A DNA stretch of 47,998 nucleotides from a virus (Duplodnaviria; Heunggongvirae; Uroviricota; Caudoviricetes): the IMG/VR virus record IMGVR_UViG_2687453188_000002. One strand, written 5' to 3'. Positions 24,188 through 25,202 of this stretch are shown piece by piece; position 1 is the first letter of the stretch; each line of letters opens with the position of its first letter. Made by a program: the position numbers and the translations under genes. The notes below the pieces were generated by a model, which searched no databases, was not told the origin of the DNA, and saw only the letters and a program-made list of their open reading frames with translations.

Positions 24188-24537
24188 GTTTTGTTGATGC
24201 GCCGTATCGTCGCTGTATTCCCTCATTAACAGAGACCGCAGCCCGACAGGGAGACTCCTCTGCGCGAGTGTGCGGGGATAATCAAAAACGATACACACCG
24301 GGGTTTACCGCGTTAACGGAGCGCGGCGTTGTCCCCTCATAGTCGCCTGTCCGGTGCGATGGTGGAAGAAGCCGGATGTTTATCACTATTAATTGATGAC
24401 ACAGAAATGGATTCATTGAATTTCAGCACGTTTTTGTATTCGTGTTATTGAACATCTGTTTATTTTACTTTTAACATATTGATAATAAAAAGAGCTGTAA
24501 ATCTTTAGATGAGTCGATTTTGTCCGGGGAAGTTCAA

Positions 24538-24678
24538 ATGGATTTTATGCTGACGGTTTCTGGTGTGGTTATCCTGTCCATTGCTTATACTGCAGATAAA
24601 TATGGCTGCCATTTGTTATCACGTATTGGCGCTTATTGTTCGTTGATGCTGATTTTCTCGTCGCTTTTTTTTGAGTAA
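24538..24678 (+). CDS. Possible small hydrophobic peptide (46 aa)
   Basis: MDFMLTVSGVVILSIAYTADKYGCHLLSRIGAYCSLMLIFSSLFFE, in the AT-rich Rz-cos interval. Below the ORF-track threshold; could be non-coding. Confidence 0.2.
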   Translation: MDFMLTVSGVVILSIAYTADKYGCHLLSRIGAYCSLMLIFSSLFFE

Positions 24679-24810
24679 GTTATATTAATTATAACAAATA
24701 ATTTTCTGTGTTATTTTTTCAGGCTATCCCGTCAGAGGGGAAGCCTGTACTGCCGGGGAGCGAATGGAAAACTGATGTGTCCGGTAACTGCGTGTTCTGT
24801 GAACACCATG

Positions 24811-24996
24811 TTACTTAATTATGTAATTCATACCCGAACTCTCTGTTGACAGCCTTCTTCTGCAGGCTTCAATAACCCACGCTGAAAAGTTTCCTGAACC
24901 TTTCAGATCAAGAGCGATGTTAATTTGTTCAATCATCTGGTTTGGAAATCGGATGTTGCGGGTTGTTGTTCTGCGGGTTCTGTTCTTTGATGACAT
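24811..24996 (-). CDS. Possible ribbon-helix-helix-like small DNA-binding protein
   Basis: 61 aa. A basic N-terminus then NIRFPNQMIEQINIALDLKGSGNFSAWVIEACRRRL resembles an RHH (Arc/CopG-like) beta-strand plus helices. Low certainty. Confidence 0.35.
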   Translation of the reverse strand: MSSKNRTRRTTTRNIRFPNQMIEQINIALDLKGSGNFSAWVIEACRRRLSTESSGMNYIIK

Positions 24997-25202
24997 AACG
25001 TTTCCCCATATTCAGTGTTGCTGATTTGTATTATCTGAAGTTGCTTTTACGTTAATTTGACGCAGATCAATTAATACGATACCTGCGTCATAATTGATTA
25101 TTTCTCGTGGTTTGATGGCGTACACACATGTTGTGATAAACCTTATATAGATGATAATCATTATCATTTCGTGGGTCCTTTCCGGCGATCCGACCGGTTA
25201 CG

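Follow-up and report, generated by a model that had tools for sequence, protein, structure and literature searches.

The interval between the Rz gene and the cos site (24188-25202) of a lambdoid phage genome, IMG/VR virus record IMGVR_UViG_2687453188_000002 (Caudoviricetes), is an ordinary lambdoid mosaic moron region in which two short open reading frames (ORFs) are real genes that are already annotated. The whole stretch of 47,998 nucleotides that was analyzed is referred to here as the window. The two ORFs are a plus-strand frame for a 46-aa hydrophobic peptide, which we call orf46, and a minus-strand frame for a 61-aa protein of the YlcI/YnfO type, which we call ynfO. An earlier note, made from the letters of the sequence, had posited that the two form a toxin-antitoxin or exclusion pair. 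Based on the distributions of the two genes and of their neighbors, it seems likely that the interval is instead a mosaic of independent modules and not a single system, and the proposed pair is not supported and is highly improbable. In the arrangement that we favor, four modules would follow one another from left to right: a widespread non-coding element that lies in the sense of the late transcript and is probably structured as RNA (24197-24377); a lineage-restricted AT-rich moron consisting of a promoter-like block, a Shine-Dalgarno sequence, and orf46 (24393-24810); ynfO (24811-24996), the product of which is predicted to dimerize as an Arc-like ribbon-helix-helix (RHH) protein, to bind DNA, and to regulate transcription; and cos, with a conserved palindrome, cosQ, and cosN (25152-25214).

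The boundaries of this interval of about 1 kb are borne out. Rz ends at 24187 and, as read from the sequence, the lambda-type cohesive end GGGCGGCGACCT begins at 25203; matches to lambda-type genomes stop exactly at window position 25202 (query position 1015), and the rightmost ~50 nt of the interval are cos sequence. Chromosomal prophage DNA of Escherichia coli O104:H4 strains from the 2011 outbreak contains the interval at 100% identity. In NC_018658.1, as annotated by the Prokaryotic Genome Annotation Pipeline (PGAP), the genes run in the order lysozyme, two small hypothetical proteins, Rz (lysis protein), the 46-aa hypothetical protein, YlcI/YnfO on the opposite strand, and the small and large subunits of terminase. 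Both ORFs, of 46 and 61 codons, are coding sequences (CDSs) in the PGAP annotation of the RefSeq genome of E. coli O104:H4 2011C-3493, with the same coordinates as the earlier note had given them (table 1). The description of the interval as AT-rich holds for 24393-25202, where the GC content of 0.383 ranks among the bottom 3.4% for 810-nt windows (mean of the whole window 0.517), but not for 24188-24392, where it is 0.546, equal to that of Rz, and where a conserved non-coding element lies. The GC content of the moron patch is 0.30-0.42 versus a mean of 0.52 across the window. Lambda does carry bor in the corresponding interval, as the earlier note had it, but a 64-aa YnfO-type homolog that lambda carries beside cos had been missed.

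Table 1. Features of the Rz-to-cos interval and of its right boundary, in window coordinates
Feature	Position	Strand	Remarks
GC-rich non-coding element, sharp ends	24197-24377	+	Alignment of 36 diverse copies, with flanks unrelated on both sides
Invariant 37-nt core GAGTGTGCGGGGATAATCAAAAACGATACACACCGGG	24266-24302	+	Within the GC-rich element
Terminal hairpin of the GC-rich element	24349-24377	+	Right end
Conserved AT-rich block	24448-24492	+	Upstream of orf46; candidate promoter/operator
Shine-Dalgarno-like GGGGAA	24526-24531	+	6 nt 5' of the orf46 ATG
orf46	24538-24678	+	46-aa hydrophobic peptide; WP_000347013.1, "hypothetical protein"; PGAP CDS
Small palindrome GTGTTCTGTGAACAC	24792-24806		Weak terminator-like hairpin 5 nt past the ynfO stop codon; T-run unconvincing
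ynfO-type gene	24811-24996	-	61-aa YlcI/YnfO (DUF3950), predicted Arc-like RHH fold; WP_001329960.1
Two interleaved 8-bp inverted repeats TGACGCAG-ATCAATTA-(9 nt)-CTGCGTCA-TAATTGAT	25058-25098		62-102 nt upstream of the ynfO ATG
Perfect 15-bp palindrome TGATAATCATTATCA	25152-25166		6 nt left of cosQ
cosQ GGGTCCT	25173-25179	+	Placed by analogy with the phage 434 record
cosN cohesive end GGGCGGCGACCT	25203-25214	+	Right boundary of the interval lies just before it

The modules exchange their partners from locus to locus. Matches to the GC-rich element number 11132 and are spread over 4145 of the 5426 complete E. coli genomes (76%), with 691 of the matches on plasmids; its left neighbor is Rz, bor, or a kilA-N cassette, and its right neighbor is orf46, ybcV, ynfO, a different terminase, or cosQ directly. 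The ynfO CDS has 9564 matches in 4184 of these genomes (77%). The orf46 module (24400-24810) is at 788 places in 734 of them, and the modules flanking it are each found in about 4150, such that the orf46 moron is a present/absent insert between conserved modules. A search for homologs beside cos in other lambdoid prophages, which the earlier note had suggested as a check, found that ynfO is widespread but that the slot facing it is filled by unrelated genes, that is, lambdap79/YbcW in lambda and DLP12, YbcV in PhiR49_1, and a tonB-like fragment in PhiR63_2, or is empty. Homology breaks within these loci point in the same direction. The stretch 24862-25202, including the repeats upstream of ynfO, has ~88% nucleotide identity to lambda-type phages; this homology extends from cos to about codon 45 of ynfO (~24862) and then ends. 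In HNH-type phages, homology ends exactly at the ynfO ATG (24996/24997). Mosaic joints therefore delimit the gene, the C-terminal tail of which derives from the neighboring variable module. This tail comprises the 12 aa after the DUF3950 domain and varies with the facing module: it is STESSGMNYIIK in the 61-aa protein here and TSEKRAYTSIKSDEE in lambda, where the facing gene differs too.

The earlier note had allowed that both short ORFs could be spurious. ORFs of such length are indeed common by chance, and 46 open codons are not unusual; we regard both as real genes because they are conserved and not because they are open. In each, the frame is conserved and synonymous changes are in excess. 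Among the ynfO variants, 36 of 63 are synonymous and 27 non-synonymous (P ~2e-8). For orf46, 16 of 32 variants over all haplotypes are synonymous versus 23% expected (P=0.0009), and the two other frames look random; the ratio of non-synonymous to synonymous substitution rates (dN/dS) is 0.25-0.31 at a dS of ~0.45-0.5. In the haplotypes of SHP24 and L191 the orf46 protein is 71-74% identical and the frame, the start codon, and GGGGAA are all kept. Between the window and the SHP24 haplotype (77% identical), orf46 differs at 17% of positions and the leader and downstream spacer at 33-36% plus indels (Fisher P=0.0004), which means that the ORF diverges at half the rate of its surroundings, and GGGGAA is retained there though the leader around it differs at 33% of positions. 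Thus, the possible hydrophobic peptide of the earlier note gains support, and orf46 is most likely a real gene that, judging from its sequence and its predicted model, encodes a hydrophobic membrane peptide.

The alternative that orf46 is no gene at all, but an open frame in AT-rich moron DNA that is conserved merely through the youth of the block, is unlikely, although several observations lean toward it. Relatives of orf46 in the viral, metagenome, and protein collections that we searched are confined to E. coli and to unassigned viral and metagenome contigs; distant relatives were sought in these collections and only close ones appeared, the homologs making up 13 clusters that are each at least 84% identical. 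No family match was obtained in Pfam, PHROGs, NCBIfam, or PADLOC. The coding signal comes from ~4 haplotypes, and the substitutions behind it are therefore few and non-independent. Frameshifted or truncated variants exist but are rare (P0008, P0010). These are the points that count against our assignment of orf46 as a gene; that promoter and terminator scans gave nothing convincing for either orf46 or ynfO counts against our reading of the interval more generally. The points against the gene are outweighed in our view by the purifying selection and the synonymous excess described above, by the slower divergence of the ORF than of its leader and spacer, by the retention of its Shine-Dalgarno motif and start codon, and by its intactness at ~130 loci and in a third context, the metagenome contig L189.

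Favoring orf46 as a gene, we consider how its product might act and when it might be made. The peptide has a grand average of hydropathicity of 1.11, and a single-sequence AlphaFold2 (AF2) model is a two-helix hairpin (helices 2-22 and 24-45) with a predicted local distance difference test score (pLDDT) of 76, from which we predict that the peptide inserts as a helical hairpin into the inner membrane. It has neither a lipobox nor a signal peptide. Phage morons that encode small membrane proteins are well known, for example lambda bor and HK97 gp15. The orf46 module is like these in being an AT-rich insert of patchy presence with a conserved upstream block and a predicted membrane product; it is unlike them in lacking a lipobox and a signal peptide and in that its promoter is a candidate one. 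The block at 24448-24492 differs between haplotypes at 2 of 45 positions, versus 35 of 112 in its flanks (Fisher P=0.00015). For the moron, the scan found neither a consensus promoter on the plus strand nor a clear terminator, and the sole consensus promoter match near the block has minus-strand orientation (TTTACA-17-TATGTT, 24501-24473). In total, the region gave 3 promoter matches against a chance expectation of 3.0 +/- 1.6, and 4 terminator sites against 1.9 +/- 1.7. Since orf46 lies on the strand of the late transcript, it should be made at least in lytic growth, and it may be expressed in lysogens as well from a promoter of its own.

The assignment of ynfO to a family is clear. The 61-aa protein matches Pfam PF13132 (DUF3950) with 67.5 bits (cut-off 25, E 9.2e-19) and NCBIfam NF041551 (YlcI_YnfO_N) with 35.2 (cut-off 30), and it belongs to PHROG 949, a group to which no function is assigned. 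YlcI (DLP12) and YnfO (Qin) of E. coli K-12 and the 64-aa ORF of lambda belong to the same family above curated cut-offs; they share with the gene here its place, with cos or the gene for the terminase small subunit coming next, its minus-strand orientation, and near-identity over residues 1-50. The order in the lambda contig L007 is Rz, bor, lambdap78, lambdap79, the YnfO-type ORF, and the end of the chromosome. The same placement, antisense to the late genes and beside the packaging module, is seen in O104:H4, O157-type, SHP24, phage 434, phage 2851, and lambda. The small gene beside cos is thus a member of a family carried by lambda itself and by about three-quarters of E. coli genomes, with a predicted Arc-like fold. 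The family is small, with 106 clusters at 50% identity among 1.8 billion representatives, many of which are error-ridden lambda reads. A full-text literature search found no functional study of YlcI, YnfO, or DUF3950.

Outside the enterics, most of the YnfO matches in assembled contigs look like lambda control DNA, and we rejected them as genuine homologs. They carry labels such as Kitasatospora, Cohnella, Pseudomonas, and Shewanella (L005-L031; ENA contigs P0055-P0133) and are lambda-like, with lengths of ~48.4 kb, which is the whole of lambda, or ~3.5 kb (3.4-3.6 kb in ENA), possibly a control amplicon of the lambda right end. Such contigs would be contamination of public assemblies.

The RHH-like N-terminus noticed in the 61-aa ORF has been strengthened by structure prediction. 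An AF2 model from an 18-sequence alignment has an extended segment at residues 14-18 and helices at 19-32 and 37-55, and the turn between the predicted helices, KGSGNFS, is of the G-x-S/T/N type. In Foldseek comparisons with the PDB the top matches are all RHH proteins (StnY/CopG, Arc, NikR, TacA, CopA_SO, ParG, and ParD2), the best superpositions having a root-mean-square deviation (rmsd) of 1.4-2.0 A over ~40 residues, and the best PDB profile match is the CopG-family protein StnY (9kkd, E 0.53). The strand-helix-helix layout of P22 Arc and of the Arc/MetJ/CopG regulators is thus also predicted for YnfO, and structures of Arc rank near the top of the fold comparison (rmsd 1.4-1.6 A over 39-40 residues). 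The N-terminal segment RNIRFP of YnfO resembles FNLRWP of Arc. YnfO differs from these regulators in that its sequence similarity to them is not significant (E 0.53) and in its Arg/Thr-rich N-terminal arm. The fold statistics are weak (Foldseek E ~1-5, pLDDT 69) and speak against too firm a reading of the model; we attribute the weak E values to a chain of only 61 residues and to a beta-strand that forms in the dimer only. At the level of prediction, the DUF3950 match, the model, and the fold and profile matches support YnfO as an RHH DNA-binding protein.

If YnfO regulates transcription, its target would most likely be its own upstream region with the interleaved inverted repeats. These repeats could be a candidate operator or mutually exclusive hairpins; as RNA, one hairpin at a time would form, because no loop nucleotides remain for a pseudoknot. 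A more distant relative is placed as a regulator would be: in Xenorhabdus (L045-L048, ~3950-4180) a DUF3950 gene with 45-53% identity lies in an element like P4 or a phage-inducible chromosomal island, in divergent orientation to a primase-helicase operon and with AlpA and AntA genes nearby, and this position is regulator-like and unconnected to terminase. A CII-site-like sequence within ynfO, TTGCGGGTTGTTGT (24956-24969), was considered and rejected; it fits the consensus TTGYN6TTGY, and a site of this kind is annotated at the corresponding place of the phage 434 record, but the assignment is by consensus only and we give it no weight because ~6 such chance matches are estimated per 48 kb.

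It is also conceivable that YnfO is not a transcription regulator but an accessory for cos function or DNA packaging that binds near cosQ. In lambda-type phages no other gene ever separates ynfO, which is on the opposite strand, from cosQ, and the stretch from ynfO to cosQ has conserved repeats and a palindrome, near variants of which (TGATAATCATTATCA here) stand beside cosQ in many lambdoid phages, even where the GC-rich element abuts cos. We nonetheless think such a role very unlikely. HNH-type phages carry ynfO with a wholly different upstream region and another terminase module, some lambdoid phages have the GC-rich element abutting cosQ and no ynfO (9 contexts), and the Xenorhabdus DUF3950 gene adjoins a primase operon. 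Furthermore, the cos site is described as ~200 bp made up of cosQ, cosN, and cosB, and as not requiring an upstream protein (PMC4669245). We therefore retain YnfO as a predicted transcription regulator. The cosQ sequence here and its 30-nt distance to the chromosome end equal those of the cosQ feature in phage 434 (OL657226.1).

Two minor observations concern the same stretch. In five loci (L124, L126, L127, L182, and L183; ~3065-3496) an insertion of ~430 nt separates the region upstream of ynfO from cosQ; it falls at window ~25102-25120. A 19-mer overlapping the palindrome (25147-25165) resembles a Fur box, agreeing with the consensus, as judged by eye, at 15 of 19 positions.

The pairing of orf46 with ynfO, in which orf46 would be a membrane effector restrained by YnfO or by its convergent transcript in a toxin-antitoxin or superinfection-exclusion system, strikes us as highly improbable. 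Its appeal is easily seen. The peptide is small and hydrophobic, RHH is a frequent antitoxin fold, and the fold matches of YnfO include TacA, ParD, CopA_SO, AtaR, and MazE9; the sole match to a group named for toxin-antitoxin systems is that of YnfO to a HicB-like PHROG, and it is weak (E 0.012). The C-terminal tail of YnfO changes with the facing module. In K-12, the analogous genes ybcW and ylcI are reported to converge and to have overlapping transcripts (PMC12288877). Transcription of ynfO opposes that of the late operon, so that the ynfO RNA may overlap the RNA of the gene opposite, and by analogy with K-12 read-through might reach orf46. Awkwardly for a mosaic of independent modules, orf46 and ynfO occur together in 76 of the 77 distinct contexts with enough downstream sequence. 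However, the orf46-ynfO block is 94-100% identical in nearly all loci, and we explain this co-occurrence by a young linked block rather than by a functional link, which we hold to be less probable; it would reflect linkage and not the independent co-occurrence across divergent contexts that is expected of type II pairs and that is not seen for these two genes.

The remaining evidence argues against a pair. Only ~8% of ynfO copies have orf46 beside them (788 vs 9564 places), and the other ~92% are without it; in other phages the slot holds unrelated genes, among them the soluble lambdap79/YbcW, or is empty. Conversely, in L189 an intact orf46 (91% identical) is followed by another module of plus-strand ORFs, with no ynfO within 1.5 kb; this is a single 3-kb metagenome contig, and a misassembly is therefore possible. 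The two genes are convergent, with their stop codons 132 nt apart, and do not form the co-directional operon expected of a type II pair. An antitoxin would be expected to have a C-terminal extension that binds the toxin, and YnfO has only its 12-aa tail, which is replaced at the mosaic joint elsewhere. PADLOC matched neither orf46 nor YnfO, no toxin family was found for orf46 in Pfam, PHROGs, NCBIfam, or PADLOC, and no operator-like motif common to the regions upstream of orf46 and ynfO was found beyond what shuffled sequences give. Type I systems, such as hok/sok, tisB/istR, and ldr/rdl, resemble the arrangement here in having a hydrophobic peptide of <60 aa and convergent transcription opposite it. 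orf46 fits the first of these features, which is not specific by itself, but it has two predicted helices rather than one. Rfam, the promoter/terminator scan, and PADLOC provided no dedicated antisense RNA gene (neither an antisense promoter-terminator pair nor an Rfam family), no structured long leader, and no toxin family. A weaker variant, in which orf46 would be a membrane exclusion peptide gated by convergent transcription of ynfO, could be envisaged. With independent modules as the preferred reading, a false toxin-antitoxin lead is removed.

Recognition of the slot facing ynfO as a place of exchange is of interest in its own right. Small genes that lie on the strand of the late transcript seem to replace one another in this slot. 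In L007, lambdap79 (552-758) is in the slot equivalent to that of orf46, in the same orientation and on the same strand; it encodes a 68-aa polar protein that is unrelated to orf46, with no homology detected between the two. This occupant has recently been reported to trigger a bacterial defense: lambdap79 activates the Vulcan NADase defense in lambda-vir infection, and phages that escape Vulcan are without lambdap79, lost probably by recombination with the Qin prophage (bioRxiv 10.64898/2026.09.04.749371). In a CRISPR interference (CRISPRi) screen lambdap79 was scored as essential, whereas earlier literature has it as non-essential (PMC10695390). We would attribute the CRISPRi result to a roadblock with polar effects on the head genes, a reading of our own. 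Taken together, the Vulcan and CRISPRi results suggest co-expression of the plus-strand genes of the slot with the late operon.

The most interesting by-product of the analysis is the GC-rich element, which is abundant (~11,000 copies) and unannotated and may be a phage RNA signal. Its core GAGTGTGCGGGRATAATYAAAAACGATRCACACCGGG is invariant among the aligned copies, no annotation lies under any copy among the matches listed, and none of the lambda-derived loci examined has an exact copy of the core. The RNAalifold consensus has an energy of -35.0 kcal/mol for the plus strand, compared with -17.1 kcal/mol for the minus strand. In the resulting structure, to which one hairpin was added by hand, 98.1% of cells in the alignment are paired, versus 29-60% with slid partners; 5 pairs change on both sides, and the one-sided changes are mostly G-U wobbles, which pair on the plus strand only. 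Two points tell against a structured RNA: the single-sequence fold is no better than those of shuffles (z = -0.67 plus, +0.07 minus), and the pairing was scored on the very alignment, of closely related copies, that had yielded the structure. Rfam gave no family in 23000-26000 at E up to 1 and, in 24180-24410 with E up to 10 allowed, nothing but two weak chance matches to miRNA models. Papers on prophage small RNAs (Tree 2014; Pas sRNA preprint) place such RNAs near pR', Q, or the genes for holin and lysozyme; the position of this element does not figure in them.

We tentatively suggest that the element is a functional and as yet undescribed plus-strand RNA in the late transcript of Escherichia/Shigella lambdoid phages, although we hold this to be somewhat less than an even prospect. 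As RNA it might be a processing or stability signal, or a regulatory switch, given that two alternative pairing partners are available to the core, one on its upstream side and one on its downstream side. Otherwise, the element would be a site conserved as DNA or a linker for recombination. If the RNA reading is true, the element would be a new structured RNA at the boundary between the lysis/moron genes and the packaging genes of lambdoid phages. A 55-aa ORF that overlaps the element (24175-24342), assigned to PHROG 6954 "Rz-like spanin" and matched in 387 phage records by tblastn, was rejected as coding, because CGA is changed to TGA in about one-quarter of the aligned copies and because conservation persists across 1-nt indels.

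To the left of Rz, we note two further ORFs between the lysozyme gene and Rz, at 23389-23571 and 23586-23717 (60 and 43 aa; "hypothetical" in PGAP), which have long hydrophobic stretches. Between the holin and lysozyme genes a hypothetical minus-strand ORF of 104 aa (22256-22570) lies in a patch of lower GC content (~0.43), which is probably a further moron.

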